Source: Steroidobacteraceae bacterium (GTDB lineage: Bacteria > Pseudomonadota > Gammaproteobacteria > Steroidobacterales > Steroidobacteraceae). Taken from it: 64,000 nucleotides of DNA. Location: contig DATAXJ010000025.1 in the NCBI GenBank assembly GCA_036266795.1, positions 101,632-165,631 on the forward strand, read 5' to 3'. The notes beneath the pieces are model-generated. The model ran no database searches, was not told the origin of the DNA, and saw nothing but the letters and a program-made list of their open reading frames with translations. A program made the translations under genes and the position numbers. Positions 836 through 19,300 of this stretch are shown here, in pieces. Every line of letters begins with the position of its first letter. The first letter of the stretch is position 1.

Positions 836-952
836 GAGACTCCCGCCTGCAGGAAGGATCCGCCGAGTATACACCCACTGGTGTTGCGGAGCCGCGAGAC
901 GCTGGCAAGGGGCCGCGGAAGAAAGTCGTCGCGCAGTGCGTCCGCTATCTGC

Positions 953-1768: not shown

Positions 1769-1786
1769 CCGCGTCCCCTTCTGGGC

Positions 1787-2686: not shown

Positions 2687-2767
2687 CCCGGCGCAAGCAA
2701 CAATGAAGCTCGATGAAGCATAAGATACGGGGCAGCGGTGCGATAGCTGCCAGCAGCATCCCGGGAG

Positions 2768-3247: not shown

Positions 3248-3249
3248 TT

Positions 3250-3284
3250 TATCAGTACGCTGATATCATATCAGTACGCTGATA
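3250..3284. promoter_or_regulatory. Two tandem copies of a 16-bp palindrome TATCAGTACGCTGATA (candidate MarR operators) in the marR/GNAT divergent intergenic region
   Basis: Exact copies at 3250-3265 and 3269-3284 (19-bp register). Each has 6-bp inverted arms TATCAG/CTGATA around TACG. Confidence 0.5.
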
Positions 3285-3318
3285 ATAGCAGAAGCCGAAA
3301 AGACACAGGAAGCGCGCG

Positions 3319-3930: not shown

Positions 3931-3963
3931 CATCATCTGGAACTCACCCACCGGTCGTGCGGG

Positions 3964-4509: not shown

Positions 4510-4589
4510 GGTGTTGGGGCTGCGAATGCAGGCGCTTTATACTTGACGCCATACGCTGCGAATCCATCGTTAGACGAGGGAGAAAGAAT

Positions 4590-5003
4590 ATGAGGGGAAC
4601 AGCAGTTGCGACGGCGACTCTTGCGCTGTCGCTCGTCATGAGTGCCGCGAGTTTCGCCCAATACCGGCCATACACCCCGAGAAACGTGAAAACCCGGAAA
4701 ATCGGCGGCACTCTCGTTTTCGTCAGTGCCGAGGACATGACGCTTTATACTTTCGATCGCGACTCCAGCGGTGTGTCGACCTGCTATGGACAGTGCACAA
4801 AACTTTGGGCGCCATTGCCGGCCCGCAGCGAGCACAATCTCGGATCCTGGTCGATGATTCTCCGCAATGACGGCAGCAAACAGTGGGCATACCGGGGCAA
4901 ACCGGTCTATACATTTGCACAGGACCAAGCACCCGGTGACGCCAAGGGAGACAACTCCGGCCCGAAGGGGACGCATCTCTGGCACGTCATCAAGGTGCAA
5001 TAG
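4590..5003 (+). CDS. Secreted protein of the COG4315 'Yx(FWY)xxD repeat' family
   Basis: 137 aa; signal peptide ATATLALSLVMSAASFA, then two repeats (TLYTFDRDS...CYGQCTKLWAPL and KPVYTFAQDQAPGDAKGD). Confidence 0.75.
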   Translation: MRGTAVATATLALSLVMSAASFAQYRPYTPRNVKTRKIGGTLVFVSAEDMTLYTFDRDSSGVSTCYGQCTKLWAPLPARSEHNLGSWSMILRNDGSKQWAYRGKPVYTFAQDQAPGDAKGDNSGPKGTHLWHVIKVQ

Positions 5004-5193
5004 TTTTGACGCAACAGTTGGACTTTCCAAAGCGCGTGCATCGTAATTACGATGCACCGATGACCACGGGCATGGGTTTGATCACATTTGGAGGCGAGTC
5101 CGGCAGCTCCTAGCCCTGCGGTATCCACGCCTCGGGAGTCCTTGCCCATGCCGATCGGTGTAACCGGTGTCACCAGCCGTCGCCAACGCCATA

Positions 5194-5547
5194 TCACGCC
5201 ATTCCCCACTTCACAGAGCGCTTCAATGCCGGCAGCGTCTTGGCCGCCAGGGCGTCGACACGTTCGGCGATGCCGCGATGCGGCTGCGGCAGGCTGCGGA
5301 TATACGCAAAAACGGGCTCGTCCCCTTCCGCGGTCTTTGCGAGGCTTGCCCAGCCAGTCATGGCGACCGGCAACATCGTGGCGACGACTTCCGCGGCCGT
5401 GTGCTCGCCGGGCTTGTGTGCCTTCGGCTTCTGCTTCGACTTGCGGAGCGGGCTGGCAACCGGGTCTCCAGTCGCCGTGCGGCTTACCTTCTTGACGACA
5501 ATTGCCCGTGCCATTTTCCGCTCTCCCCACGATTCGCCGACGAGCAC
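5194..5547 (-). pseudogene. DUF1801 (YdhG-like) gene interrupted by in-frame TGA codons and a downstream frame break
   Basis: The ORF ends ...LKRSVKWGMA*. Reading through gives YGVGDGW* and then loses the family pattern. A shifted frame retains ...PIGMGKDSRGVD..., suggesting an internal deletion. Confidence 0.5.
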
Positions 5548-5559
5548 GGTTAGTATGTC

Positions 5560-5865
5560 CTTGGCGTGACAATCTCAGGCAGCAGGGCGGCCGTCGTCTG
5601 GAGGTGTCCGCCACCCGTCTCATCGGCCAGCCCCGGCTAACCGTTCTATCCGTCGCGCTATCTGTAGGTTTTGGATCTACTGCCGTGGATGGTGTCCAAT
5701 CACCTGCTGGGGAAGCCGCGGTATGGCGTAAGTCATGATGATCCCACCGTTACTGCGCCCGACAAGTGTCGCTATGATGCGGCGATAGAAATCACCGAGC
5801 CGCTGATCGCGCGTGGCCAAGCGCTATGTAGAGCTGAACCAAGACCTCGCCGATCCATCTCGTGA
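5560..5865 (+). pseudogene. Decayed AraC-family / GyrI-like regulator remnant
   Basis: Frame 1 reads ...LSVALSVGFGS... (AraC HTH helix). Frame 2 reads ...KPRYGVSHDDPTVTAPDKCRYDAAIEI... (GyrI-like effector domain). The two parts are out of frame and lack the intervening roughly 100 aa. Confidence 0.45.
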
Positions 5866-6106
5866 AAGTCAGATTCCAGATGAGGTGCTGGACAAAGCAA
5901 AACAAGCGATTGTGCTGGATGATCTGAAACTGCATCTCCGAAGTTAGCAATATCGGAGAAGCAAACGGCTACGAACGGTTCGGAGAGAACAGATTGCGTG
6001 CCAATTTGCAACAGATCATGAACCAGGCCAGGAATTGGACGCACGCCCTGCCTCGCGCCGCTGAACCCATTCCGGCCAACGCCGCGGACGATTAACATGC
6101 GATGCC

Positions 6107-7687
6107 ATGACTTCCTGTATGAGGCGCACGACGACGTCAAAGCAGCGCCACTCCGTCCGAATTCAATTCTCCTCGGCGAAAGTGTTCGCCGTCTCTTCGG
6201 CCGCCGCGGCGTCGTTTTTCTTCATAGGTGCGCCATACGCAGCGGATTCGTCTGAGAGCGCCATTAATTTATCTCAGAGCGTACCCAAGACTGTAGGGAC
6301 GGCTTCGCCCGGAGCAGCGTCCATTGGTCCATCCGTGCTATTGGCAGTCCATACCTGCGGCAACCTTTCGGAATTTTTTGCCGACAACTGCTCTCTCACC
6401 TGGCATGGAGTGACGTTGTACGGCACGATCGACATCGGCGGGACCTGGCAGAGTCGTGGGGCAGCGTTCAATCCATCCTCCCCTCCCGGAGAGGAGTACC
6501 TGCTGCAAAAGAACAGCAGCCGCGTGGGATTTGGTCTTGCGCCTGACGCGGTCAGTCAATCAGCAATCGGAATCAAGGGAAATGAGAACCTAAGTCCCGG
6601 ATGGACATTTGTTTTCGATCTCGAGACGGGGTTCGACCCTGTTTCCTTACGTTTGGCGAATGGGCCAGGATCTATTGCTCAGAATGCGGGGGTCCCGCTC
6701 TCCAGCCAGAGTTCGAACACCGATTCAAGCCGGGCCGGGCAGTTCTATAACTCCCTTGGCTACATGGGCGTAAGTTCGCACGCTTACGGCACTCTGACTG
6801 TGTTTCGGCAGAACTCACTCACGTTGGATGGAGTGCTTGCCTACGACCCGATGGGCGGCTCCTATGCATTCTCCCCGATCGGTTATCAAGGTATTACATG
6901 CGGCGTGGGAGACACCGAAGACTGCAGGTTCACAACGGCCCTGAAGTATCGTGTCGCCGCCGGTCCATTTCGGGCCGCGGCGCTGTGGCAATTCGGCGGC
7001 TACGACTCGAATAACGCATCGAGCGGCGCCTACCAGTTGCAAGCCGGCGGAGACATCTCTCACGTGGCCAGGGGCTCAATTTCCATCGACGTCATTTACA
7101 GCCGCGTCAAAGACGCCGTGGCGATCGGGCTCGCGGGGAACACACTGCCGGTAGCGTTGCCGCAGGTACTGACTGCGACGCTTTCCAATGACACCAGCTG
7201 GATGACTCTCGCCAAATATTCGAATGGCGCTACCAAACTATATGGCGGCTACGAATGGATCCAATACGCGCCCCCTGGCGATCCGAAAAGACAATTCACC
7301 GATATAGCTGGAAGCTTTTTGTGCGCGGGATGTGGCACAAGCAACAATACGAATATCAACAATACGGCCTTCACCATCCACGATAAAATCCTGCAGGTAT
7401 TGTGGCTTGGGGCCAAATACGCCGTCACTCCACAGCTCACTGTAGCGACAGCTTACTACCAGTACCTCCAGAACAGTTACGGCGGGGGTGCGACGTGCGA
7501 AAGCGCCGCGAAGGCGACATGCAGCGGCCTGTACAACGCCGTCTCCTTCACCATCGATTGGGAGATTGCCGCGAAGTTTGATGCCTACGAGGGAATGATG
7601 TACCAGACAGTCGCCGGTGGATTATCGAACGGGTTCCTTCATCGGAACACCATTGATCCGACGATCGGGCTCCGGTTCCGATTTTGA
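6107..7687 (+). CDS. Outer-membrane general porin (Gram-negative porin family)
   Basis: 526 aa; signal-like AVSSAAAASFFFIGAPYAAD, VTLYGTIDIGGTWQS, alternating beta-strand pattern, C-terminal ...IGLRFRF. Exact start uncertain. Confidence 0.8.
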   Translation: MTSCMRRTTTSKQRHSVRIQFSSAKVFAVSSAAAASFFFIGAPYAADSSESAINLSQSVPKTVGTASPGAASIGPSVLLAVHTCGNLSEFFADNCSLTWHGVTLYGTIDIGGTWQSRGAAFNPSSPPGEEYLLQKNSSRVGFGLAPDAVSQSAIGIKGNENLSPGWTFVFDLETGFDPVSLRLANGPGSIAQNAGVPLSSQSSNTDSSRAGQFYNSLGYMGVSSHAYGTLTVFRQNSLTLDGVLAYDPMGGSYAFSPIGYQGITCGVGDTEDCRFTTALKYRVAAGPFRAAALWQFGGYDSNNASSGAYQLQAGGDISHVARGSISIDVIYSRVKDAVAIGLAGNTLPVALPQVLTATLSNDTSWMTLAKYSNGATKLYGGYEWIQYAPPGDPKRQFTDIAGSFLCAGCGTSNNTNINNTAFTIHDKILQVLWLGAKYAVTPQLTVATAYYQYLQNSYGGGATCESAAKATCSGLYNAVSFTIDWEIAAKFDAYEGMMYQTVAGGLSNGFLHRNTIDPTIGLRFRF

Positions 7688-7716
7688 AGAGTGGTAGACT
7701 TCCGGGGCGCTGCCGT

Positions 7717-7875
7717 CTAGGGCACCTTAGTCCCCAAACTCCCTGCTGGATAAATCATGAACTCCAGGAGATTTCCGTCGGGGTCGCGGACGTAGACGCT
7801 GGAACCTGTGATCTGGCGGCCGCCTTGCCGTGCGACGGGTCCCAGCTCGATTTTGGCTCCCACTTTGTCCAGCAT
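7717..7875 (-). pseudogene. C-terminal fragment of a VOC/glyoxalase-family protein
   Basis: Own translation: MLDKVGAKIELGPVARQGGRQITGSSVYVRDPDGNLLEFMIYPAGSLGTKVP* (52 aa). The upstream frame is closed by a stop, so there is no N-terminal half. Confidence 0.4.
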
Positions 7876-7959
7876 GCCGCCTCGACCTCAGGTGCGCCCG
7901 GCTATTTCAGGATTGGCGCTTCAGCGCTGACAAGACGAATGCTCACTATGCCAGCGCGC

Positions 7960-10131
7960 TCAGTGACAGGTGAGTTTGCCGTCTTTGTACTCGCAGTCAT
8001 CGGGTGGGCCGTATCTCTCGTAATAGGGAAGCGCTCCACGGCGAGCAATGTACGCTTGAAATCGCGGATCCTCCCGAAACTTCCGCCACTCCGGCTGCCA
8101 CGGACACGATTCGCCACCGATTAATCCGGCGGGCGCCTCGTCAAGGCACTGATTTGCCAAAGCATACGCCGCGTCCAGGTCACCCAGCAGCACGTAGGCC
8201 CGCACGCCGTTGTAGCCGCATTGATCTGCCCCTTGCCGAGTCAGCGTGCGGCCCGGGGGATATAGCCGCGTGCGCGCTACCAGCGCCGCTGCCCGCTTGG
8301 TGGGGTTGCCGGGATCGGCAATTGCCGCCAGCACCAGCCGGTTCAGTTCCTGGGCCGGTGCGACGTCGGTTTCGGGTTGGTTGGGGCTGAGCAAGAAGCT
8401 GTCACGCAAGTACACGGCATACCGCCCGGCGCGTACCGATGCCAAACCACGGATGTCTCCCAATGTCGGGTTGTCTTTAGGCACACCGAGCGCCACTGCC
8501 AGTTGTTCGTAGTTGAGCGCCTCGCTGTCCAGGTCGGCCCACGAATGCACCGTGCCTGCAAACATCACCACCGTAGGGATGGCTGGCGCCAATGCGTAGG
8601 CTTCGCGCATTTCCTGCACCGCTTCGCGCATGTGCCCAAGGTAGGCTTGCACCTGCGCATGAGTGAACCGGAGCAAGGCGTCATTGGGATCCAGCATTTC
8701 GGCTTTCCGATCGTGTTCCTCGGCACCCACCATGTCGCGGCGCAGAAAGGCGATCACGCCCAGGTTAGACTCCGCCTGGGCGGAATTGGGATCGAGCTTC
8801 AGCGCGTGCTGGTCGGCTTGCTCGGCGGCGAGTATATGTGACTGCAAAGAGTCGTAGTGCCAGAGCGCCAGGTGCGCCGTCGCGATTCCGGCGTAGGCTC
8901 GAGCGTAGCTGGAGTCGCGAGCGATCGCTCGCTGGAAGAAATCCAGCGCGCTTTCGGCATCGGGCGTCCCCTCGTCGTTCAGCATCGCGAGCCCCTGCAA
9001 AGTCAGCCGGTACGCGCCTACGTCACGGGTCGGTGGCGCAATTACGACGGAGTCTGGCGGTCGTCCGCTCTTATCGACCTTCATCACGGTGAGGACTTCA
9101 TTGCTGACATCGTCATAAAGCTTGAACAGGTTCGCGAACTTCTCTTCGAAGTTCTGCGAGACGGTAACCTCGCCAGTGGCGCCATCGACAAGCTGCACGT
9201 TGACGCGCACCAAATCCCCTCCTTTTTGGACTGTTCCCTCCAGAATCTTGGCGACTCGAAGCTCACTCGCGATCTTTCTGACATCTTCCGCCCGACCCTT
9301 GTAGGCAAATGAGCTGGTTTTCGACCGCACCTGAAGGGCCGTCACCCTTGACAAGGAATTGATCAGCTCCTCCGCTATTCCATCACCCCAGTAGTCCAGG
9401 TCTTTCTCGCCCGTTTGGTTGTCGAACGGCAGCACCGCAATCGAGGCTTTCGCTATTGAGTCTGGCGTCGTCGCAGCACGAGATGCCCGGGCTGGTTTGA
9501 CTACCATGGCTGGCCCCTGAGAACCAGCCGCTCGGCTCGTTATAGAGGCAGGCGATTTCTGTGAGTTCCCGATGAGCCAAGCCGCGAGGCCGAGGGCAAC
9601 CGCGAGCACTGCGGCAGCGATCACCGTCACCCAGCGCCAGGGCCGTCCCGGGATGCGCCCTGCGCTCGGAGCGATCGGGCTGACAGGGGCGGCGGCCTCG
9701 ATCGCGGCGGCCTCGATCGCGGAGGCCTGGAGTTCGGTCGTCGGGAGCGCGAGCGCGGGGGGCATCTGGCCGCGCAAGTCCAGCTCGAGGTGTGAGTGCG
9801 GCACAACACGCACGGGAGCGATGAACTTGAAGCCCCGACCGGGTACGGTGAGGATGAAGCGGCGCTCGCCTGCCGTCTCGCCGAGCACCTTCCGCAAGGT
9901 CACGATGCACTGGTTGAGGTTGTTCTCCTCGACCACCGCTCGCGGCCAGACCGCTGCCATCAATGCGGACTTCTCGACGAGCTCTCCGGCGCGCCCTACA
10001 AGCTGCAACAGTACTTCGAAGGCCCTGGACGGCAGGGCTATCGGCACCCCCTCGCGCGACATCAGCACGTGCAATGCCGTGTCGAGGTGAAAGCCGCCGA
10101 ACTCGTAGTCTGGTGCGCTACTGTCGTCCAT
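7960..10131 (-). CDS. Membrane-anchored winged-helix (OmpR/CadC-type) transcriptional regulator with periplasmic TolB-like and TPR region
   Basis: 723 aa; N-terminal YEFGGFHLD...LLQLV...G.LV.K..L...VW......ENNLNQCIVTLRKVLGE...FI.TVPGRGFKF; one TM segment (WRWVTVIAAAVLAVALGLAAWLI); then IAVLPFDN... and TPR-like repeats. Confidence 0.8.
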   Translation of the reverse strand: MDDSSAPDYEFGGFHLDTALHVLMSREGVPIALPSRAFEVLLQLVGRAGELVEKSALMAAVWPRAVVEENNLNQCIVTLRKVLGETAGERRFILTVPGRGFKFIAPVRVVPHSHLELDLRGQMPPALALPTTELQASAIEAAAIEAAAPVSPIAPSAGRIPGRPWRWVTVIAAAVLAVALGLAAWLIGNSQKSPASITSRAAGSQGPAMVVKPARASRAATTPDSIAKASIAVLPFDNQTGEKDLDYWGDGIAEELINSLSRVTALQVRSKTSSFAYKGRAEDVRKIASELRVAKILEGTVQKGGDLVRVNVQLVDGATGEVTVSQNFEEKFANLFKLYDDVSNEVLTVMKVDKSGRPPDSVVIAPPTRDVGAYRLTLQGLAMLNDEGTPDAESALDFFQRAIARDSSYARAYAGIATAHLALWHYDSLQSHILAAEQADQHALKLDPNSAQAESNLGVIAFLRRDMVGAEEHDRKAEMLDPNDALLRFTHAQVQAYLGHMREAVQEMREAYALAPAIPTVVMFAGTVHSWADLDSEALNYEQLAVALGVPKDNPTLGDIRGLASVRAGRYAVYLRDSFLLSPNQPETDVAPAQELNRLVLAAIADPGNPTKRAAALVARTRLYPPGRTLTRQGADQCGYNGVRAYVLLGDLDAAYALANQCLDEAPAGLIGGESCPWQPEWRKFREDPRFQAYIARRGALPYYERYGPPDDCEYKDGKLTCH

Positions 10132-10146
10132 AGTCCGGGGCCGTTG

Positions 10147-10176
10147 AGGTCGTGCTCCAGCAGGTCGTGCTCTAGC
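10147..10176. repeat. Tandem 15-bp direct repeat AGGTCGTGCTC(C/T)AGC x2 just upstream of the CadC-like gene start
   Basis: 10147-10161 and 10162-10176 differ at one base. They lie in the divergent region between the regulator (start 10131) and the urcA-like gene. Confidence 0.6.
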
Positions 10177-10408
10177 CTATTGCCATTTTATCGAGGCGTA
10201 GACCCTTTGACGATCCTGGTAAGCCCTAGGGTTGTGCGGAGGACTCCGGGAGGCTGTTCGGCGCCTTCATACCGCGCCTCACAGATTCTCATAACGTCTC
10301 ACGGGCTCGCCCAAGCTTCCTCATAGCCAAAGCGTGAATCTCGCTTCACGCCGCGATCGGGAAATCCTTTCCCTCGAGGCGCTCGACACCACCAACCAGG
10401 AGATTCAC

Positions 10409-10753
10409 ATGAAAACCAAGCTCAACATGACCGTCGGCTTCACCGTTCTGGCAATCGCGCTCGCCTTCAGCAGCGGCGTGTTCGCAGAGAGCCCCAGCTT
10501 CGTCAATTCCGCCAGCAAGACCGTGCACTACCAGGACCTGAATCTATCCACCCCGAAAGGAATCCAGGTTCTGTATCGACGCCTCCAGGTTGTCGCCGCC
10601 TCGGAGTGTGCACAGGTGGCGAGCGACCCGTACTACGCCTACCTGGAATGCACCCAGGCTGCTATGGATGCCGCGGTCCGGGCGGTGGGCAACGCCGATC
10701 TTACCGCAATGCACCACGGAATGAAGCGCAGAGCGTTGGTTGCCGCTCGTTAG
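10409..10753 (+). CDS. UrcA family secreted protein
   Basis: Start chosen at MKTKLNMTVGF... (AGGAG 7-12 nt upstream). Signal peptide, then VHYQDLNLSTPKGIQVLYRRLQVVAASEC, typical of UrcA-like proteins. Confidence 0.7.
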   Translation: MKTKLNMTVGFTVLAIALAFSSGVFAESPSFVNSASKTVHYQDLNLSTPKGIQVLYRRLQVVAASECAQVASDPYYAYLECTQAAMDAAVRAVGNADLTAMHHGMKRRALVAAR

Positions 10754-10768
10754 AGTTCCACATTGTGC

Positions 10769-10804
10769 GACGGCGGGCGGCGGTAATGCTGCCCGCCGTC
10801 TTCT
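10769..10804 (+). terminator. GC-rich hairpin downstream of the urcA-like gene
   Basis: GACGGCGGGC (10769-10778) pairs with GCCCGCCGTC (10791-10800), 12-nt loop, followed by TTCTG. The T-tract is weak. Confidence 0.5.
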
Positions 10805-10875
10805 GCGTCCCCGCGCGGACCGGTGCGTTCGGTATCTCATCTTCTACGACGCCTTCTCGACCTCCGGTAACCCTC

Positions 10876-10958
10876 AGATTTAAACGACACCCCGCACGAG
10901 TGATCGGGGCAATACCCATCCGGATTCTTCGCCAGATACTGCTGGTGATAGTCGGCGC
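10876..10958 (-). repeat. msrA 3'-end copy A (truncated; putative original attB-derived gene end)
   Basis: Encodes ...[38 protein letters not shown]. The 46-bp core 10890-10935 is identical to 16972-17017 and 18751-18796. Confidence 0.85.
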
Positions 10959-11396
10959 TTAAGGCGAGGCGTTTTGTCAAGTTAAATTAGTAGCTTACAT
11001 AACTGTTGTCCAGTGCTCGATAGACTTTCGGTAGACGTCGCCGCCGATCCATCGGTAGACCAGCATGGATCGCGAGTTCTGCGCAGACATGGTTTTTTTG
11101 CGTGTCCGAACCGGAACACGACGCGTCGCGGAGTAACGCCGAATATGCACTGTTCGCAGTGTGATGCTTGATGGTCGTGCCCCGATCCGTGCATGTCCGC
11201 GTATGATCCCTAGCGGTTCCGAGGGGGAGAATGTTGTTCCCGCCACAGCAGTCGCGCCACCCACTGTGAATTCGACGGTTCAATAGGCTGAGAGACCTGC
11301 AGGCGATCGCGTTCATCCCCTGTGGCAGGAATTGACATAACCACGCTGTGCCACCCGTAGTCCGCCCGCCATTGATCCGGGTATGATCTGGCGCAA

Positions 11397-12743
11397 ATGA
11401 AAATCGTGAATAGGGTTGTTCACGTCACGCAAAGCGATGCAGGGACGTGGTTGGAAAGAGTCGAACGGGCGCTCTGTGCAGCTTCACATTCGCACCGTTT
11501 GCCCGTGCGCTCCGCCATCTGCGAAGTCAATGATCGCGAGGCTCTGGCGGATGCGACCTTCGTGGAGTGGGATGCGGACGAACCGTGCGGCGAGCTGCTC
11601 GCTCGACTGCAGGTCAGCGCGCCGCGTCGTAAGTCCCACCAGGAAGGCAGGTTTGCCGTCGTGCAGATCGTTCCGACGGGCGTGCGCTGCGAGATCGGCG
11701 GCTTTGCCGGCGATGCCTGTCCGGCGACCAACCTGCTCGCGGCCAGCGCCGACTTACTGATCACTCACCCGAACGCCGTCAATGCTTCCGAGCTCAACGA
11801 GATGGCGGCCAACGTGCTGTATGTCGAAGGCAGGAGCCTCGACGATCTGATGCTCGGTCAGCTCGGGCTAGCCCCGAGTCGGGCCAATCGCATCGGCACG
11901 TTCATCGACCCAACTGGCGCGGCATACTTGGACGACGTCGTGCATGCGCTCAATGCTGCGCGTGCCACCGGCGGCATCGATTGTGGGCTTCACAGCGTCG
12001 GGCGCGAGGATTTCGGTGTCGCAATCGATTGGTCGGCGCATGGTTGTGCTGTCGGCACCGTACGGCACCCCGACGTCATCCTCGAAGTAGTCGGCCACCT
12101 GCTGAGCCAGGGCGCCGAGGCCATCGGCGGTGTATCCGTCATCCACGGCGTGAGTGCGCAGCAGTTCTCCAGCCACCTCGAAGGCAAGCTGCCCAACCCC
12201 TCCGGAGGCATCGAGGCCATCATCACGCACCTGATATCCAGGGTGTTTCGCATCCCCACGGCCCATGCGCCATTGCCGTACTATCAGGCAATCAAGCAGC
12301 GTGGCACGCACAATCCGCGCGCCTCGGCGGAGTTCATCTCGACTCCGCATTACTTTTGCGTTCTCAAGGGGCTGGCACGCGCTCCGCGGCTGGTGCCCCT
12401 GGAGGACCTGCAGCGCGTCCCCAGCCATCTGATCAGTCTCAACAACGTCGGCGCCGTGGTAGCGCCCGCATCCTGCCTTGGGGGCACTGCGGTGCTGGCC
12501 GCCGACTTCAACGCGATCCCCATCATCGCGGTCCGGGAAAACGGTTCGGTCCTGGACGTCTCGAACGAGCGCATGGGCCTGCGAAACGTCATCGAGGTGG
12601 CCTCCTATCCCGAGGCGGCGGGCGTCGTGCTGGCCTTGCGCAAAGGCATATCGCTGGAAAGCGTACGCCGTCCCCTGGGTCGCGCGCTGCACGCGGATAT
12701 TGCGTCCGTGGCACACCTGTGGGGAGCTGCTGCCGCGCTGTGA
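11397..12743 (+). CDS. DUF3326-like protein (function unknown), translationally coupled to the NRPS
   Basis: 448 aa; motifs VQIVPTGVRCEIGGFAGDA and LITHPNAVNASELNEM match my recollection of DUF3326. Alternative start GTG 11661 (GGAAGG upstream) would give about 360 aa, the usual family length. Stop TGA 12741-12743 overlaps the NRPS GTG at 12740. Confidence 0.65.
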   Translation: MKIVNRVVHVTQSDAGTWLERVERALCAASHSHRLPVRSAICEVNDREALADATFVEWDADEPCGELLARLQVSAPRRKSHQEGRFAVVQIVPTGVRCEIGGFAGDACPATNLLAASADLLITHPNAVNASELNEMAANVLYVEGRSLDDLMLGQLGLAPSRANRIGTFIDPTGAAYLDDVVHALNAARATGGIDCGLHSVGREDFGVAIDWSAHGCAVGTVRHPDVILEVVGHLLSQGAEAIGGVSVIHGVSAQQFSSHLEGKLPNPSGGIEAIITHLISRVFRIPTAHAPLPYYQAIKQRGTHNPRASAEFISTPHYFCVLKGLARAPRLVPLEDLQRVPSHLISLNNVGAVVAPASCLGGTAVLAADFNAIPIIAVRENGSVLDVSNERMGLRNVIEVASYPEAAGVVLALRKGISLESVRRPLGRALHADIASVAHLWGAAAAL

Positions 12744-15700
12744 CCGTGACGCCGGAGAGTGCTTCGCCAGCGGCGGTTGATGAGCTGTTGGCGCGGTCCA
12801 ACCTGACAGCGCGGCAACTGCTGATCTACGCCGGCCAACGGCTCAGCCCCGACATCCTGTTGTACGATGCAGTCTATGCGGTGAGCTGGCCGGACCTGGC
12901 GCTGCCGCGTTTTCGTTTGGCGTGGCAGCAGCTACTCGACACGTGCGATGCCCTGCGGACCATCGTCGAGGAAGTCGATGGCATCCCGCGGCAGCGCGTA
13001 CTCAACCCCTACCCTTTGGAGGTCGAATACGTCGAGCTTCCACGGGCCGAGGGCAGCGACGCACCGCTCGAGTGCTACCTGCAGTCCCGCCTGGAGCGCC
13101 CGCTGGTCCTGCAACAACGCGCGTTCGACACCGCCGTAATCCGCACCTCGGCGCACCAGCATGTCTGGTATCTGAACCTGCACCATGTCATTGCCGATGC
13201 CGCGGCCGCCGAGCTGCTGATCGAGCGGCTGTACCGAATCTACCACGAGGAACCGGGTGCACTCGCGCTCGCGCCACTGCCGTCGTTCATGGACCAGGTT
13301 GCCCGGCGACGCTCCGCGCTCACCGATGCCACCCACCGCGATGACACATGCTATTGGCGACAGCGACTCGCCGGTCTGCCCGCGCCCACGCCGCCCTACG
13401 GAATCACTGCGATCGGAGCCCGCCAGGAACGCGTGCTGATCCAGCTCGACGAGCAACGCGGTCGCGCCATCGCGGCGCTCGCACGCACCATGTTCGGCGA
13501 CGGCCTTGGGGAGCACGCCGCTGCCTCCAATCTGTTCTGCGCGGCGTTTGCCATGTTTCTTACTCGCGTCAGCGGCAGCCGACAGGTCACGATCGGCTCG
13601 ACTGCCCACAACCGCCGCAACGAGACCGAGCGACGGACGATCGGACTGCTGATGGAGGTGCTACCGCTCGCGCTGACGCTGGATGCCGAGGACGGCCTCG
13701 CGCAAGTCATGCGCCAAGCCGCCAGCGTGACGCGCGAGGCGCTGCATCATCGCGGCTACAGCGTGCCCAATTCGAGCCGCAGCCCCCACTATCTGGCGCT
13801 GATCAACTATATGCGTCCGCTGGTGACGACCCCGCCCGGACTGACCGTACGACGCATCCATCCAGGCCATGGGGCACACGCGCTGGCACTGAGCATTTCC
13901 CCGCCCCGCGAGGGTCACGCGTGGCAGCTGTGGCTCGACGTGAATGCCATCCTGGCGCAAAGTATCGGAGCGGAGCGAATCGCAGCGCAGTTCCGCATGT
14001 TGCTCGAGGCCGCGGTGGCTGACCCTCAGCGGTCTCTGGCATGCCTTCCCCTGCTCGCAGCCGGCGAAGTACACCGTATCCGTAGCCTGTGCTACGGCCC
14101 GCACCTGGCGGCCGGATTACGCGAGTGCGGCTGCCATAAGGCGTTCGAGCTTCAGGTGACTCGCAGGCCCGAGGCCACTGCCGTGGCTTTCGGAGGGGGT
14201 ACGGAGAGCTACACCCAGCTAAACCGGCGCGCCAATCGCTTGGCCCATGAGCTGATGGGCCGGGGTATCGGCCGTGGCGCGCTGGTTGGCATTCATCTGG
14301 AACGCTCGCTGGAGATGATCGTCGCGGTGCTGGCGGTGCTGAAGAGCGGCGCCGCCTATCTGCCGCTCGATCCGGCCTATCCGGCCACGCGGCTGCAGCA
14401 CATGCTGGAAGAGACCGACGCCGCAATCATCATCACGGATCAAACTCTGGCGGCTCAGCTCACTCCAGCGGCCAGGCCCATACTGCTACTGCCGCTGCCT
14501 GAAACCGCGTCGCTGGATGTTGCCGATCCCGGCGTGAATATACGTCGAGCGGATCCGGCGTACGTCATGTACACGTCGGGCTCCACGGGCACACCCAAGG
14601 GTGTCATGGTCACGCACGGTGGCGTCGTGAACTACCTCGAGTGGCGCAACAGTTACTTCCCGCTCACGCCTACCGACCGGTGTCTGCATAAGGCGTCGTT
14701 GAGCTTCGACGACTCGGTCTGGGAGATACTCGAGCCTCTGGGAGCCGGTGCATGCATCGTCCTGGCACGCCCGCACTTCGAATACGACGGCGCCTATCTG
14801 GCCGCGCTGATGGCGGGGCAACAGGTGAGCGCGGCGTGTCTCGTGCCCACGCTGCTGCGCGCCTTCATCGAGGAGCCGCAGACAGCATCCTGCGTCTCGC
14901 TGCGCCGCCTGACCACGGGAGGCGAGACACTCAGCGTGGCACTGCAGCGGCGCGTACTCGAGCGGCTGCCTTCTGTGAAACTCTACAACGGCTACGGCGC
15001 CACCGAGACCACGATCGCATCCTCGTTCTGGCAGTGTGCGGATGATCGGCGGGCGTCGGTGCCCATCGGCCGGCCCATCGCCAACACCACGATCTACGTC
15101 CTGGATGATGCTGGACAGCTGCTGCCGATCGGCGTGCCAGGCGAGCTGTATGTCGGCGGTGCCGGTGTGGCCGCCGGCTATCTGCGCCAGCCGGCGCTGA
15201 CCGCGGCGCGCTTCACCGCCGCAACCGCGGCCGCGCCCGGCGAGCGCCTGTATCGGACCGGTGATCGCGGACGGTTGCGCGACGATGGTGTGTTGGAATT
15301 TCTCGGGCGGGTCGACGAGCAGGTCAAGATCAACGGCGTACGTGTCGAACCGGGTGAAGTGGAAGCCCACCTGTTGAGCCATGCGCTGGTGCGCGCCGCG
15401 GCGGTCGTCTGTCATGAACCGCAGCCCGGGAGCAAGCGGTTGGTGGCGTACGTCGTACCGGCGCATGCCAGCGCCCTCTCGGCCGCAGAGCTGCGCCGTT
15501 ACCTGCGCACCTGCCTGTCACCCTCGCTGGTTCCTGGCCGCTATGTGCTGATCGACGCATTGCCGAGCACTCCGAGCGGCAAGCTCGACCGCAACGCCCT
15601 TGCGACTGCAACGGCATCGCTGCCCGAGCTGACCGCCAGCGTTGACCCGCGTGACGCCATCGAGCGGCAGCTACTGGAAATCTGGCAGGCGATGCTCGAT

Positions 15701-16666
15701 GTGCGCCCCATCGGCGTCCAAGATGACTTTTTCGACCTCGGTGGCCACTCGTTGCTGGCCGTGCAGCTGGCCGCGGCGATCGCCCGGCAGTTCAAGCGTC
15801 ATCTGCCGCCGGGATTGCTATTCGAGGCACCGACCATCGAGGCGCTCGCGCTGCGTCTGGCCGCACCGCAATCGAGCACCACGCCCTCAATCCTGGTAAA
15901 GCTCCGGGCCGAGGGCGATCGGGTGCCGCTCTTCTGCATCCATCACGTGCGCGGCAACGTCAATTGCTATCGTGAGCTGACGGATCTGCTCGTAACGGAG
16001 CAACCGGTGTATGGCCTCGAAGTCAGCGGCGGCGCAGTTGCTGACGGTGTCACCATCGAGACGCTCGCAGCCCGGTACGTCGAGGAAGTGCTCGCATGCC
16101 AGCCAGTCGGGCCGTATGCCATCGCCGGCTACTCGGCCGGTGGATTGATCGCCTACGAGATGGCGCGTCTGCTGGTGGCGAGAGAGCGAACGGTGGCACT
16201 GCTGGCTATCCTGGATACCGATGCGGGCACCCGCGCCAGGCGCGTCGTGATCGATCCGCTGCGTTTTCACCTCGATAATCTCGCGCGCCTTGGGCCTCTG
16301 GAGGCCATAGGCTATCTCTGGCACAAGATCTGCGCCCGTTGGCGCACACGCGCCGGCGCCGCAAAACCTGCAGCGCCGGCTGACACGCCAGGCGATCCGC
16401 TGATGGCAGCGTTGGACCACGCCGTCGAGCGCTACCGTCCACGGGAATACGCCGGCGGCGTCATGCTGTTTCGCGCCACCGATCGACGAGTCACACGCAC
16501 CTACGCCCGGACACTTGGGTGGCGTGCACTGGCCGGCGGCGGCGTTCGCGTCATCGACATCCCCGGCGACCACCGCACCATCGTGCAGACTGGCCCCGTG
16601 CGTATGCTCTCGAGCCGACTCAGTGAGTGCCTTGCCCGGATCAATGCATCTTCGACGCCGACTTAG
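12740..16666 (+). CDS. Single-module non-ribosomal peptide synthetase, C-A-T-TE
   Basis: C domain with HHVIADA (13181-13201). A domain with YVMYTSGSTGTPKGV, SFDDSVWE, NGYGATETT, YRTGDRGR..DG.LEFLGRVDEQVKINGVRVEPGEVE, PSGKLDR. PCP FFDLGGHSLLAVQL (Ser codon 15749-15751). TE GYSAGG (Ser 16133-16135) and GDHRTI. The first 253 codons of ORF 11981..16666 overlap the DUF3326-like gene and were rejected. Confidence 0.9.
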   Translation: MTVTPESASPAAVDELLARSNLTARQLLIYAGQRLSPDILLYDAVYAVSWPDLALPRFRLAWQQLLDTCDALRTIVEEVDGIPRQRVLNPYPLEVEYVELPRAEGSDAPLECYLQSRLERPLVLQQRAFDTAVIRTSAHQHVWYLNLHHVIADAAAAELLIERLYRIYHEEPGALALAPLPSFMDQVARRRSALTDATHRDDTCYWRQRLAGLPAPTPPYGITAIGARQERVLIQLDEQRGRAIAALARTMFGDGLGEHAAASNLFCAAFAMFLTRVSGSRQVTIGSTAHNRRNETERRTIGLLMEVLPLALTLDAEDGLAQVMRQAASVTREALHHRGYSVPNSSRSPHYLALINYMRPLVTTPPGLTVRRIHPGHGAHALALSISPPREGHAWQLWLDVNAILAQSIGAERIAAQFRMLLEAAVADPQRSLACLPLLAAGEVHRIRSLCYGPHLAAGLRECGCHKAFELQVTRRPEATAVAFGGGTESYTQLNRRANRLAHELMGRGIGRGALVGIHLERSLEMIVAVLAVLKSGAAYLPLDPAYPATRLQHMLEETDAAIIITDQTLAAQLTPAARPILLLPLPETASLDVADPGVNIRRADPAYVMYTSGSTGTPKGVMVTHGGVVNYLEWRNSYFPLTPTDRCLHKASLSFDDSVWEILEPLGAGACIVLARPHFEYDGAYLAALMAGQQVSAACLVPTLLRAFIEEPQTASCVSLRRLTTGGETLSVALQRRVLERLPSVKLYNGYGATETTIASSFWQCADDRRASVPIGRPIANTTIYVLDDAGQLLPIGVPGELYVGGAGVAAGYLRQPALTAARFTAATAAAPGERLYRTGDRGRLRDDGVLEFLGRVDEQVKINGVRVEPGEVEAHLLSHALVRAAAVVCHEPQPGSKRLVAYVVPAHASALSAAELRRYLRTCLSPSLVPGRYVLIDALPSTPSGKLDRNALATATASLPELTASVDPRDAIERQLLEIWQAMLDVRPIGVQDDFFDLGGHSLLAVQLAAAIARQFKRHLPPGLLFEAPTIEALALRLAAPQSSTTPSILVKLRAEGDRVPLFCIHHVRGNVNCYRELTDLLVTEQPVYGLEVSGGAVADGVTIETLAARYVEEVLACQPVGPYAIAGYSAGGLIAYEMARLLVARERTVALLAILDTDAGTRARRVVIDPLRFHLDNLARLGPLEAIGYLWHKICARWRTRAGAAKPAAPADTPGDPLMAALDHAVERYRPREYAGGVMLFRATDRRVTRTYARTLGWRALAGGGVRVIDIPGDHRTIVQTGPVRMLSSRLSECLARINASSTPT

Positions 16667-16754
16667 GTCTTCGCTGCGCCGACCGCCAACGGTCAGCGTC
16701 TAGCTGAAAAAGTCGGGACGCTGCGTACGGCCAGCAGGTTCCTAAAGGGACGCG

Positions 16755-16838
16755 CGGGAGCCGCAAAGCCCAAAGACCTGATCAAGTATCTCTGGCGGGC
16801 ACCGCACCCTTGCGTACCCTTCGACGGCATGATGACAT
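16755..16838 (+). pseudogene. Remnant of an RHH/HicB-like antitoxin 3' end (paralogous to 17615..17860)
   Basis: Translates ...RAGAAKPKDLIKYLWRAPHPCVPFDGMMT, compared with ...RAGTAKPKDLLKYLRRVPKVAPLDDDRT of the intact antitoxin. No upstream coding part. Confidence 0.45.
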
Positions 16839-16927
16839 CACCGCCGCCAGAACTGCGTCCCGTTTCTCCTATACGCCCAGCATTCTTCCCCGCGGACTTC
16901 CCGCCCGAACCCTCGCTGTAACGATGA

Positions 16928-17040
16928 CTACGTCTTCTCCCCCGGCTCCAACTCCGCGGATTTGAAGCTGACCCCGCACGAGTGATCGGGGCAATACCCA
17001 TCCGGATTCTTCGCCAGGTAATGCTGGTGATAGTCGGCGC
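16928..17040 (-). repeat. msrA 3'-end copy B (truncated, chimeric)
   Basis: Encodes ...[36 protein letters not shown]. The stop-proximal half resembles copy C; the inner boundary (GTGATAGTCGGCGC) resembles copy A. Confidence 0.9.
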
Positions 17041-17160
17041 TGAGGCCGGAAATGCCACGTAACCCACGCCGTTATATCCTCGTAGTCGCCGATCGGTCGA
17101 CTTCCAGTAGACGCTGGGGGGCGCTCGAATCGGTAGAGCGGCGCCCACATCTCATAGAGG

Positions 17161-17189
17161 TTGACATCCTATACGATGTCACATAACAT
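17161..17189 (+). promoter_or_regulatory. Candidate sigma70 promoter with embedded inverted repeat (possible TA operator)
   Basis: TTGACA (17161-17166), 17-bp spacer, TAACAT (17184-17189). IR GACATC/GATGTC at 17163-17168 and 17175-17180. The GTG start at 17196 lies only 7 nt from the -10, so the mRNA may be leaderless. Confidence 0.45.
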
Positions 17190-17195
17190 TTTCGA

Positions 17196-17618
17196 GTGCG
17201 GGTCGTACTCGATACATCCGTGGTCATCGCAGGACTGAGGAGTCGCCTCGGCGCGAGCAATCAGGTCTTGGTCGCGGTCGCGGAACAACGTTGCACCCCG
17301 CTGGTGACTACCGCTTTATTCCTGGAGTACGAAGCGGTGCTGCTGCGACCTGAGCATCAGCTCGCGACCGGTTTGAATCCTTCCGATATAGAGGGATTCC
17401 TAGCGGCGCTGGCGAGCGCTGCCGAGCCCGTTGAAATCAACTTCCTGTGGCGCCCGCAGCTTCGGGATCCGGCTGATGAGCTGGTACTCGAGGCCGCGGT
17501 GAACGGAAAAGCCAGCGCCATTGTGACGCATAACGTCAAGGACTTCAGATCCGGGGCGGAACGATTTGGGGTTGCGACGTTGACTCCTGCGGAATTACTG
17601 AAGGAGCTCCGAAAGTGA
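17196..17618 (+). CDS. PIN-domain toxin (putative type II TA toxin component, PIN family)
   Basis: 140 aa; VVLDTSVVIAG (acidic D), ...LEYEAVL..., DPADELVLEAAVNGKASAIVTHNVKDF. Confidence 0.8.
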   Translation: MRVVLDTSVVIAGLRSRLGASNQVLVAVAEQRCTPLVTTALFLEYEAVLLRPEHQLATGLNPSDIEGFLAALASAAEPVEINFLWRPQLRDPADELVLEAAVNGKASAIVTHNVKDFRSGAERFGVATLTPAELLKELRK

Positions 17619-17860
17619 GCAAGAGTACCTATCCTTTGAAACTTCCCAATTCCATTAAGAATGCAGCGGCAGAGCTCGCGAAGGCAGACGGCGTGTCACT
17701 CAATCAGTTCATTGCGGCTGCGGTCGCGGAGAAGGTAGGCTCGTTGCAGACGGCGCAAATATTTCTAGAGCAGCGAGCAGGCACAGCAAAGCCTAAGGAC
17801 CTTCTCAAGTATCTGAGACGCGTGCCCAAGGTGGCTCCGCTGGACGATGACCGGACTTAG
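17615..17860 (+). CDS. RHH / HicB-like antitoxin
   Basis: 81 aa; YPLKLPNSIKNAAAELAKADGVSLNQFIAAAVAEKV. GTGA overlap with the toxin stop (17615-17618). Confidence 0.7.
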   Translation: MSKSTYPLKLPNSIKNAAAELAKADGVSLNQFIAAAVAEKVGSLQTAQIFLEQRAGTAKPKDLLKYLRRVPKVAPLDDDRT

Positions 17861-17956
17861 GTCTTCACAGCGCGCGGGAACGCTCAGGGTCTGGGCTCGT
17901 GGGCGGTTGGTCCGACGTGCTATCCGCGACGTCGTGCTCTGCCCGCCTGCGGTCCT

Positions 17957-18193
17957 CTACAGGAGACGATCAGCTAACGTCCCGGTCCATAAACGGCCAT
18001 CGCTCGTGAACTCGAGCGTTAGCGTTTCCCTTACGCCAGCTTCTTCCTTGACATACGATATGATCGCGTAACCCATGGGGTGCGTCTTTGGTGACCTCGG
18101 GTGATTAAACGACTCTCGTGTGACCGCAAAAAACTCGATTCGTTCCGCGTGCCTATCTTCCGTCCAGCTGGGCCCGAATATTCGAACCAACAA
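17957..18193 (-). CDS. Hypothetical protein (may be the shifted C-terminal part of the 18153..18491 ORF)
   Basis: 78-aa ORF overlapping the upstream ORF by 41 nt in another frame. No recognisable motif. Confidence 0.25.
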   Translation of the reverse strand: MLVRIFGPSWTEDRHAERIEFFAVTRESFNHPRSPKTHPMGYAIISYVKEEAGVRETLTLEFTSDGRLWTGTLADRLL

Positions 18194-18491
18194 TCGGCGG
18201 CCCGCCTCGGTTCACCGGATCATAATTCACCAAATGGATGACTTCCTGCTTGAGCTTATCCCGATCCGGAAGCGCAGACCGTGTAACGCTGTCTGCATGA
18301 AAGTAGCGCTTAAGGCCGCCGCTTGTCGCATAGAAGGTTGGATCCATGAGGACGTCGCTCCGGAAGACGGTATCGATAACCTCCAAGACGTCGAGAGCAG
18401 TTTTCTGGGTCGGGGCCGCTGCAAACCCGACGTGGCATCCGATGACCAATGCCAATGCGACGAATATCGTCCTTGCTTTTACTTTCATCAT
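18153..18491 (-). CDS. Hypothetical small secreted protein
   Basis: Start taken at MMKVKARTIFVALALVIGCHVGFAAAP (signal peptide). The longer ORF to 18773 reads through the msrA repeat in the wrong frame. Confidence 0.45.
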   Translation of the reverse strand: MMKVKARTIFVALALVIGCHVGFAAAPTQKTALDVLEVIDTVFRSDVLMDPTFYATSGGLKRYFHADSVTRSALPDRDKLKQEVIHLVNYDPVNRGGPPIVGSNIRAQLDGR

Positions 18492-18706
18492 ATTGACCGG
18501 GCAACGGGGCTCTGCCACCGAGGAATTGTGTACTCCTCGGCGACATTCTTTCCCCGCGGAATATCCTAAGCCCGAACCATCGGTAGACTTCCGGTAGACT
18601 TCAGCGCCGAAAACACCCGCCATTTTCCTGCAGAATTCCGCGGGGTCTTCCATTCCCCAGCACGTAACTCTTTGTCTCCCGGCAGGAAACAGAGTAACAC
18701 GAGCCC

Positions 18707-18815
18707 TTACACCTTCTCCCCCAGCTCCAACTCCGCGGATTTGAAGCTGACCCCGCACGAGTGATCGGGGCAATACCCATCCGGATTCTTCGCCAGGTAC
18801 TGCTGGTGATAATCC
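18707..18815 (-). repeat. msrA 3'-end copy C (part of the intact gene)
   Basis: Same segment as copies A and B; 46-bp identical core at 18751-18796. Confidence 0.9.
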
Positions 18816-19300
18816 TCCGCGTAGAAGAATGGCGGAGCCGGCCGAATCTCCGTGGTGATCTGACCGTAGCCAGCCTTGGTCAGCGCTCTTTGGAATTCCT
18901 TGCGCGACTGTTCCGCCGCCTGCTGCTGCGCCTCACCGTCGGTATAGATCAGCGAGCGGTACTGGCTGCCGATGTCATTGCCCTGACGCATCCCCTGCGT
19001 CGGATCGTGTGATTCCCAGAACACCTTGAGAAGCTGCTCATAGGTAACGCGTTTCGGGTCATAAATCACCAGCACCACCTCGGCGTGTCCGGTGGTATTG
19101 CTGCACACCTGTCGATAGGTGGGATTCGGCGTATGCCCGCCGGCGTAGCCGACGGCGGTGGCGTACACGCCAGGCATTTCCCAGAACTGCTTCTCCGCGC
19201 CCCAGAAGCAGCCCATGCCGAAAACGGCGCGCTCGAGGCCCGGTGGAAAAGGCGGCTGAATGCGCTGGCCATTGACAAAATGTGTTTCCGGAATCTGCAT
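18707..19300 (-). CDS. msrA: Peptide-methionine (S)-S-oxide reductase
   Basis: Start at MQIPETHF... (GAGGAG 6 nt upstream); [13 protein letters not shown] active-site motif; ...[37 protein letters not shown]. Confidence 0.9.

Follow-up and report, generated by a model that had tools for sequence, protein, structure and literature searches.

In a 64,000-nt stretch of DNA from a Steroidobacteraceae bacterium (GenBank assembly GCA_036266795.1, contig DATAXJ010000025.1, positions 101,632 to 165,631; hereafter the window), the 3' end of msrA is present three times, and our data support the reading of positions 10836-18817 as a two-cassette array that arose when cassettes integrated one after another, in Campbell fashion, at the msrA 3' end. 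Each copy of the gene end is the middle part (M) of a longer composite unit, U-M-D. Units of the same anatomy and polarity are conserved in more than 100 loci, where they accompany unrelated cargo. The content of the site turns over at strain level, an unoccupied form of the site exists, and no recombinase linked to the units was found. We favor, with more confidence than doubt, a mechanism in which the cassettes encode no integrase, carry a lambda-like attP and are moved in trans by an unlinked heterobivalent tyrosine integrase.

Three copies of the msrA end bound two cassettes

In reverse complement, the window forms part of a 210-kb contig from a JGI metagenome (Ga0376690_0000148, sample 3300036820). 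The 46-mer CCCCGCACGAGTGATCGGGGCAATACCCATCCGGATTCTTCGCCAG is present exactly at three positions of one strand (core copies A, B and C, Table 1); the number expected from dinucleotide shuffles is 0.00. A repeat search returned one three-copy family (10847-10953, 16929-17035 and 18708-18814), in which copies B and C are 95% identical and copy A is 74% identical. The exact runs shared among the copies are 47-76 nt long. In the alignment, B equals C on the stop-codon side and A deviates, while on the inner side GTGATAGTCGGCGCT is common to A and B and C runs on as msrA. Copy C completes the 197-aa MsrA, and its tail is conserved in relatives. The translation of copy A ends in SFKSEGYRRSRRRRRR followed by a stop codon. 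This odd tail results from a frameshift: a 2-nt insertion breaks the normal tail, and the other frame reads ...LPEVEKAS and a stop. Neither a tblastn search with the MsrA tail nor an nhmmer search at maximum sensitivity revealed further degenerate copies in the window.

An earlier note, made from the letters of this DNA, had described the direct triplication with its 46-bp core, the mosaic flanks and the C-terminal translations of the copies. The core is exact at all three positions, the polarity of the flanks persists on formal alignment and the translations read as claimed. The three copies are thus real, but the repeat size of about 80-110 bp given there covers about one quarter of each repeat, the whole-unit profile being far longer.

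The arms of the three units differ in a regular way. Read from msrA toward lower coordinates, the order is msrA-M-D, cargo 2, U-M-(deleted D), cargo 1, U-M. In unit C, M (18707-18817) is formed by the last ~35 codons of msrA itself and is followed by an intact D arm (18538-18706) with a hairpin and GAGTTAC, CCGCGGAATTCTGCAGGAAAA, two GTCTACCG boxes (18592-18599 and 18581-18588) and TAGGATATTCCGCGGGGAAAGA. Unit B has a U arm (17041-17140) with three variant boxes, CTCTACCG (17131-17138), GTCTACTG (17105-17112) and GTCGACCG (17094-17101), an M with an intact reading frame (16928-17040) and a D remnant from which an internal deletion took out the hairpins and both boxes. Unit A has a U arm (10959-11075) with the boxes GTCTACCG (11053-11060), GTCTACCG (11029-11036) and GTCTATCG (11018-11025), the frameshifted M and no D arm. 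This composition, -MD / UM(d) / UM-, is the order predicted by serial Campbell integration. The direct repeats of the msrA end bound the inserted DNA, and msrA remains intact. As judged from arm composition and cargo annotation, the two elements keep attL- and attR-like ends and have no recombination or transfer genes. The GC contents of the two cargo blocks (Table 1) differ from each other and from the flanks; that of the whole window is 64.5%. The proposal that two elements had entered the msrA 3' end one after the other, each with a new MsrA tail, also stems from the earlier note, and the arm composition, the relatives and the other arrays all agree with it.

Anatomy of the U-M-D unit

A wobble-degenerate search with the core returned 91 metagenome contigs. 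Most of these bear only the last 35-38 codons of msrA without the body of the gene, often two to three times per contig. The contigs hold 116 copies, of which 83 are detached, and all are co-oriented. When the detached copies were printed in register and then aligned, they shared long non-coding flanks, and the repeat proved to be a composite unit of about 370-430 bp. We built a whole-unit profile of ~430 columns and computed the information content per column. The profile identifies 164 units in 110 loci, with mixed strands in no locus.

The U arm (~105 nt) is non-coding and consists of boxes GGTCTACCG, then GTCTACCG-AAA-GTCKACCG, followed by RTAAC, TTTCCGTGG and CTTCAGCGCCGAC. M comprises the last ~35 msrA codons (~110 bp), which encode ...(PDHS or GIGG)CGV.FKSAEL.VGEKA and the stop codon. 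The D arm (~165 nt) begins with a hairpin of variable sequence and GGTTAC and continues with CTGCGGATTTCTGCAGGAAAACGC, GAGGTCTACCGGAAGTCTACCGGTG and TAGGAAAGTCC.CGGGGAAGGA. The GTCTACCG boxes number five and share one orientation; three lie in U and two in D, at profile columns 42-49, 66-73, 77-84, 359-366 and 370-377, and neighboring box pairs are spaced 11 bp. The boxes and several other arm blocks reach 1.6-2 bits per column, equal to codon positions 1 and 2 of M; the spacers and the cargo are near 0. Conservation drops abruptly at both outer edges of the unit, and all cassettes have the U|M junction, which is sharp, and the outer ends in common.

The box is not a dispersed repeat of the genome, since all four exact copies of GTCTACCG in the window lie within units A and C. 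The double-box pattern is found in 77 of 192 loci, namely the known unit carriers and eight IMG/VR contigs that we counted as chance matches. The arms are probably recombinase-binding sites, and GTCTACCGGAAGTCTACCG is the stretch that we name as a DNA probe for finding the box-binding protein. An imperfect inverted repeat, CACCAG-CAGTAC-CTGGCG, is found at +27 to +44, at the left edge of the identity block; as it lies in conserved coding DNA, its conservation is uninformative.

The hairpin of the D arm lies in the first ~40 nt past the stop codon (18663-18706 in the window). Its stem changes in sequence (CCCTGTTTCC/GGAGACAGGG vs. CTTGGTTTCC/GGAAGCCAAG) with the pairing kept, and GGTTAC comes after it in every case. 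Its stability exceeds that of shuffled sequence only modestly (mean -9.3 vs. -7.8 kcal/mol).

Cassettes of the same type in other loci

Successive units are spaced 0.4-6.9 kb apart, and 15 distinct complete cassettes with 0.64-6.9 kb of cargo were recovered. Their cargo is unrelated and includes a BLUF sensor, a thioesterase, hydrolases, a molybdo-oxidoreductase with cytochrome c, three HSP20s, a BBE oxidase with an AraC regulator, a catalase, an MFS transporter and a TonB receptor with a BNR protein. Clustering of the proteins from all contigs gave 239 clusters, and cargo genes occur in both orientations. Toxin-antitoxin cargo is common (BrnT/BrnA-like in L006, TumE/HVO_A0114 in L184 and HigB-like in L195; L numbers denote loci). 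The unit order of the window recurs in L006, L184, L122, L207 and L115. Among these, L006 is a genome bin with a 0.7-kb BrnT/BrnA-like cassette, and L184, which carries the TumE-type cassette, comes from a 925-kb contig. The metagenome and genome scans were single-shot.

Some arms stand alone. Without M, D arms (profile columns 270-419) and U arms (columns 22-84) were seen in L134 (2349-2498 and 3987-4049), L101, L146 and L102, and in L002 (6394-6513) a U arm is truncated just ahead of the position of M, which is missing. These solo and truncated arms point to deletions or exchanges within the arms.

In L174-L182, which belong to the population with MsrA P0116, an IS30-like and two IS110-family transposases, one of them split, lie behind msrA (~13.6-17.4 kb in L174). 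No detached unit is found within 10 kb in these loci, and the genes of L173 differ after the first cassette gene.

CadC-like regulators, with an OmpR-type winged helix and TPR, are repeatedly found as cargo adjoining the units and are 30-36% identical to one another. They were seen in the window (7960-10131, minus strand), L145 (2774-5461), L091 (1-1494), L105, L153, L130 and L207 (14812-16598). Regulators with OmpR-type winged helices bind direct repeats spaced 11 bp. The pairs of GTCTACCG boxes have the same spacing, and a link between them and the CadC-like regulators is possible.

Turnover and unoccupied sites

Steroidobacteraceae relatives keep the upstream synteny of patatin, orf89 and msrA, but not the gene order downstream. 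Up to msrA, the DNA of L195 is 90% identical to that of the window; a HigB-like pair and a hydrolase follow. In L157 (86% identical, the nearest relative that has a long flank), 2 kb separate msrA from a dioxygenase gene, vs. 16 kb in the window. Three further loci (L208, L209 and L140) have an msrA with the native tail SFKSAEVKEEAKA and no D arm, that is, an unoccupied site. A comparison with related genomes for empty or differently filled sites, as the earlier note had suggested, yields both types.

The cassettes are also modular. L117 and L168, which hold different cargo, diverge inside M, and so do L085 and L150. One cassette follows the msrA body in L134 but the U arm of another cassette in L101 (99.5% identity over 3 kb). 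In addition, the same cargo and U arm are joined to different D arms and cargo in L096 vs. L162 and in L127 vs. L166.

Of the three copies in the window, copy A is closest to the msrA end of L157 (92.7%). Copy A had been taken for the original gene end. It is the oldest retained end, but it carries a cassette-type tail and so need not be the original one.

Several observations accompany these comparisons. In L157 (6117-8036, corresponding to 2752-18732 of the window), a ClC channel and a small membrane protein replace the whole 16 kb, and homology resumes at the dioxygenase. The replaced part includes genes outside the att-bounded cassettes, for MarR, GNAT, DUF1214, a lipoprotein, a porin-like protein and the CadC-like regulator. 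MsrA of L157 reads through into a 227-aa fusion tail. The C-terminal cysteine region of MsrA (M +63 to +75) is swapped by the cassettes between GYCPDHSCG and GYCGIGGCG (L122 at 7189, 8886 and 11680), so the recycling cysteines of MsrA may be exchanged by mobile DNA. A third tail type, GYCGLGGTGVSC, occurs in L007, L022 and L025, in which the profile match spans only the conserved coding part of M.

Proposed mechanism of cassette movement

Under the mechanism that we favor, a circular cassette would carry a single composite attachment site, U-M-D, of ~370 bp. Recombination within M between the circle and msrA would insert the cassette and give msrA an equivalent new C-terminus. The earlier gene end would be displaced outward, preceded from then on by the U arm of the cassette. 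In the window, cassette 1 (DUF3326 and a non-ribosomal peptide synthetase, NRPS) would have entered first and cassette 2 (the PIN pair and the small protein) later, adjoining msrA, and copy A would be the oldest retained gene end, now decaying. The arms with their five boxes would be arranged like those of a lambda-type attP, with arm-type sites. Strand exchange would be performed by a tyrosine integrase encoded elsewhere, on the host chromosome or on a helper element, so that the cassettes would move only in trans. We infer the type of the enzyme and its action in trans, and likewise, from the conserved arms, the site-specific nature of the insertion.

Several results weigh against this mechanism. 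First, no enzyme was found. A Pfam scan of ~30 open reading frames (ORFs) of the window revealed no integrase, and a motif regular expression together with phmmer over all window ORFs of at least 100 aa gave no convincing recombinase. The same two approaches found none among 1563 ORFs of the 91 unit contigs (0.49 Mb) and the window. No recombinase was found in the 8 kb past the left end of the window, and in the gene tables of 17 further places, on contigs of 6-925 kb, the 10 kb around msrA contain no member of an integrase family. Searches of IMG/VR, PLSDB and a phage collection found no element with these arms.

Second, the identity breakpoints do not fall at one position. Shared right-hand segments start at +6, +21, +22, +36 and once at +136, and shared left-hand segments end at +97, +104, +126, +128 and +157. 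If they point anywhere, it is to the left part of M. Moreover, L082 and L109 differ only between +59 and +80. The scattered breakpoints and this pair indicate that general recombination or gene conversion also acts on the units. Third, the cores of the window are identical to one another and those of other units are not, as would be expected if exchange of the RecA type or conversion had homogenized them; for a tyrosine recombinase, 6-8 bp of identity would be enough. The window 46-mer is absent from every other unit in the data set, where the nearest core has two mismatches; only 1.65% of between-contig core pairs are identical, and the median difference is 5 of 46 positions. A 46-mer that is unique and yet identical in three copies suggests homogenization of the repeats within this genome. 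Finally, the GTCTACCG boxes could bind some other protein.

In all, no recombinase was found in ~0.7 Mb of unit-type loci. The phmmer probes (XerD, IntI1, lambda Int, Cre and gamma-delta resolvase) detect each other, and they found seven recombinases in IMG/VR loci, all confirmed by Pfam. Scans of IMG/VR with the degenerate PDHS core and the GIGG-type core gave no matches. The double-box scan of IMG/VR gave eight matches, about the number that we estimate by our own calculation to arise by chance, and none of these bears a unit. When the complete unit was compared with PLSDB and the phage collection, only msrA coding similarity was found. No recombinase gene or probe-detectable fragment was seen in the 15 complete or the many partial cassettes, and no parent integrase-bearing element with the same att site was found in the 110 loci or in the IMG/VR, PLSDB and phage records. 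For the repeats of the window, the earlier note had reported neither integrase nor tRNA, and the tRNA search and the Pfam, motif and phmmer probes of the window ORFs were likewise negative. A tRNA or tmRNA gene as the real target finds no support, as neither was found in the 64 kb.

Recombinase-bearing elements of other lineages do target the 3' end of msrA, which speaks for a dedicated recombinase, as do the block-wise conserved arms around unrelated cargo, the lambda-like arrangement of the boxes and the shared U|M junction. In L204 (IMG/VR, 1-9983), an element of ~9.5 kb lies between repeats of the msrA end, and a large serine recombinase abuts the distal repeat. In L205 (9700-11800), a Phage_integrase ORF, a tyrosine integrase, is found 70 nt from a detached msrA end of the actinobacterial type. 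L205 is a 124-kb IMG/VR viral contig from sample 3300036818, a number close to that of the window's sample.

The strongest alternative, a serious rival that we nevertheless regard as unlikely, is that homologous recombination does all the work. M or the whole unit would be portable homology, circles popped out by RecA would re-enter any msrA, and no dedicated recombinase would be involved; the arms would have been inherited unchanged or kept because they do something else, for example in expression or insulation. The breakpoints scattered across M fit this explanation, as do the long exact runs in the window compared with the median difference between contigs and the lack of a recombinase in any locus, and the solo D and U fragments and internally deleted arms can be read as untidy exchanges. 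It accounts poorly for the arms themselves. Boxes of 8 bp near 2 bits beside spacers of ~0 bits, next to unrelated cargo, are blocks of the kind that binding sites, and not neutral descent, give. As the in-gene copy at no time pairs with U, RecA integration would place no selection on this arm. A sharp U|M junction and outer ends common to all cassettes are also not expected, and RecA would work poorly on ~100 bp of 75-95% identity in transfer from one lineage to another.

Returning to the trans-acting integrase, the PDHS or GIGG variant of L122 moves with the D arm on its right, which would place the exchange left of ~+63. Such a position fits the inverted repeat at +27 to +44 but does not prove it to be the site. 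As to the place of recombination, the Campbell-type event that the earlier note had set within the 46-bp core stands, but the crossover is not placeable in the core, as the breakpoints scatter over M. A dedicated recombinase and RecA or gene conversion probably both act.

Decay is a less probable explanation still, and we give it only a small chance. The cassettes would be remnants of integrase-bearing islands or prophages at msrA, in which the integrase has been lost and is not absent by design. Decay is visible in the frameshifted tail of A, the internally deleted D arm of B and the truncated U of L002; integrase-bearing elements use the msrA 3' end in other lineages; and the formation of cis-mobilizable elements by deletion is documented (PMC5704250). 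However, no recombinase gene or fragment detectable by the probes remains in the 15 complete or the partial cassettes. The cargo between intact arms is as small as 0.64-1.2 kb, and no parent element with these arms was found in any of the collections searched.

An integron-like array without an integrase, of the type called clusters of attC sites lacking integrases (CALIN), is disfavored and very improbable. The unit would be a folded attC-like site with the crossover at G|TTA. RTAAC in U and GGTTAC in D do resemble R'' and R' boxes, and the array is co-oriented with small cassettes rich in toxin-antitoxin genes. However, an attC site is an imperfect palindrome of 57-141 nt; the unit is longer (~370 nt), its conservation reaches 60-120 nt past both motifs, and the stretches beside TAAC and GTTA are not mutually complementary. 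No breakpoint is found at the GTTA position (~+170), the cargo genes lie in both orientations, the IntI1 probe was negative and the array begins inside msrA, not at attI.

Equally hard to sustain is an assembly artifact, in which an assembler joined strains or loci through the repeat and made the order of the window chimeric: the contig does come from a metagenome, the B/C exact run is 76 nt and unit-bearing contigs are often short, as if broken at repeats, but the patterns -MD, UMD and UM- occur on numerous independent contigs, among them contigs of 306, 632 and 925 kb and GTDB bins, the arms of the window units differ as age would predict, and the largest k-mers that assemblers now use exceed the exact repeats in length. 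Two further candidates were rejected. A Tn7-like or IS200/IS605-like reading (a hairpin followed by TTAC) meets with no transposase, and such elements do not duplicate ~110 bp of target. An integrative mobile element exploiting Xer (IMEX) is not supported, as the unit consensus has no dif-like 28-bp motif.

Genes of the window

The features of the array are listed in Table 1. From msrA toward lower coordinates, the order is the 112-aa protein, the antitoxin-like gene, the PIN_3 toxin, copy B, the NRPS, the DUF3326 protein, copy A, a 139-aa ORF and the CadC-like regulator. The nearest MsrA proteins that bear a source name are labeled Steroidobacteraceae. In the toxin-first pair (17196-17860), the PIN_3 toxin gene precedes the antitoxin-like gene with a 4-nt overlap. 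The DUF3326 and NRPS genes (11397-16666) also form a compact pair with a 4-nt overlap, and no homologs of either protein were seen in the 91 other unit-bearing contigs.

A 526-aa ORF (6107-7687, plus strand) has a signal-peptide-like start and no Pfam match, and a 33%-identical relative adjoins the cassette array on L115. It sits in a stretch of lower GC content (4.5-7.9 kb, 53-60%). An Rfam search of 10.5-19.5 kb matched no RNA family at E values up to 1.

Table 1. Positions of msrA, the units, the core copies and the cassette genes in the window.
Feature	Position	Strand	Description
msrA	18707-19300	-	197 aa; Pfam PMSR, E 6e-66; identical 197-aa gene called on the source contig
Unit C, attL-like	18538-18817	-	nhmmer profile positions 144-423, E 2e-77
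Core copy C	18751-18796	-	46 bp exact; within msrA
Cassette 2 cargo (newer)	17141-18537		GC 54-60%; gene calls and Pfam
112-aa protein	18153-18491	-	Signal-peptide-like start; no Pfam match
Antitoxin-like protein, 81 aa	17615-17860	+	Weak HicB match
PIN_3 toxin	17196-17618	+	Pfam E 4.5e-23
Unit B, attP-like hybrid	16895-17140	-	nhmmer profile positions 43-287, E 2e-57
Core copy B	16972-17017	-	46 bp exact; B-C exact run 76 nt (16945-17020 with 18724-18799)
Cassette 1 cargo (older)	11076-16894		GC 64-69%; Pfam
Single-module NRPS, C-A-T-TE	12740-16666	+	Pfam Condensation, AMP-binding, PP-binding, Thioesterase
DUF3326 protein	11397-12743	+	Pfam E 3e-84
Unit A, attR-like, terminal	10836-11075	-	Extent of whole-unit profile match; nhmmer profile positions 30-265, E 3e-52
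Core copy A	10890-10935	-	46 bp exact; encodes 15 residues

Comparison with known systems

Cis-mobilizable elements (CIMEs) are bounded by attL and attR, lack integration and transfer genes and are mobile only via the recombinase of another element (PMC5704250). Tandem accretion at the 3' end of a protein gene has been described for ICESt1-related elements at fda of Streptococcus thermophilus (PMC5704250). By definition, both elements of the window would be CIMEs in tandem accretion. In the published account, CIMEs arise by decay of integrative conjugative or mobilizable elements and are found beside related integrase-bearing ones (PMC5704250). The msrA cassettes differ from them in three respects: neither a parent element nor an integrase remnant was seen in the 110 loci, the cassettes are small and numerous, with cargo that may be below 1 kb, and the integrase-less form appears to be the norm across a bacterial family.

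The unit resembles a lambda-type attP in its length of ~370 bp, in the short boxes on both arms that are unlike the core and spaced 11 bp, in the block identical to the target gene end, which restores the gene on integration, and possibly in the imperfect inverted repeat (CACCAG-N6-CTGGCG) at the left edge of that block. Unlike a lambda-type attP, it has no integrase or excisionase encoded beside it, and no cognate heterobivalent tyrosine integrase was found in any DNA searched.

Similarities to integrons and CALINs are also evident. The cassettes are small, promoter-poor and co-oriented, with diverse cargo, toxin-antitoxin genes, one site each and the newest at the entry point. In contrast to integrons, the site is not an attC hairpin, the entry is the coding end of a housekeeping gene instead of attI, no IntI was found, the cassettes are often multi-gene in either orientation, and each insertion replaces the C-terminus of MsrA.

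Staphylococcal cassette chromosome (SCC) and pseudo-SCC elements at the 3' end of rlmH (orfX) form tandem elements with direct repeats of the gene end; some lack a recombinase and use Ccr in trans. Their repeats are ~15-30 bp, their recombinases are serine recombinases and recombinase-bearing SCC are common. The msrA cassettes are likewise tandem elements at the 3' end of a conserved protein gene, separated by gene-end repeats, but their units are far longer and no recombinase-bearing members were found.

In the tycheposons of Prochlorococcus, successive integrations push older elements outward, partial target copies are scattered and the cargo is niche-adaptive (bioRxiv 10.1101/2020.12.28.424599). 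Tycheposons target tRNA genes and themselves encode a tyrosine or large serine recombinase, frequently together with a replication module, and integrase-less pieces were regarded as degenerate remnants in that work (bioRxiv 10.1101/2020.12.28.424599). The msrA array also pushes older elements outward; unlike tycheposons, it has no recombinase of its own and a protein gene as its target. Our literature searches turned up no description of cassette arrays at the 3' end of msrA, and the only msrA attachment site that we found is at the 5' end of the gene, in a Lactobacillus crispatus prophage (PMC10763512).

Given that no parent or remnant was seen and that the cassettes are small, many and family-wide, the msrA locus may be described as following integron logic without integron chemistry. 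A bolder proposal, which we put forward tentatively and believe somewhat less readily than not, is that the locus is an integron-like cassette-capture platform of the Steroidobacteraceae. The integrase-less cassettes with a ~370-bp attP would be the normal mobile form, served by one unlinked, possibly domesticated recombinase that recognizes GTCTACCG. They would enter at an invariant stretch of msrA that encodes 10 residues, swapping the C-terminal cysteine region each time.

Even if the arms are irrelevant, the locus is a well-documented case of portable homology driving island growth. The C-terminal cysteine region of MsrA is replaced by incoming DNA, which may affect the recycling of the enzyme. 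The host family consists of abundant, little-studied soil bacteria, and flexible gene content in soil and peat metagenomes can be mapped with the ~430-column unit profile. Should the cassettes be the working form, these bacteria would have an expandable, strain-specific accessory array at one chromosomal address, built via attP and attB and not via attC hairpins.

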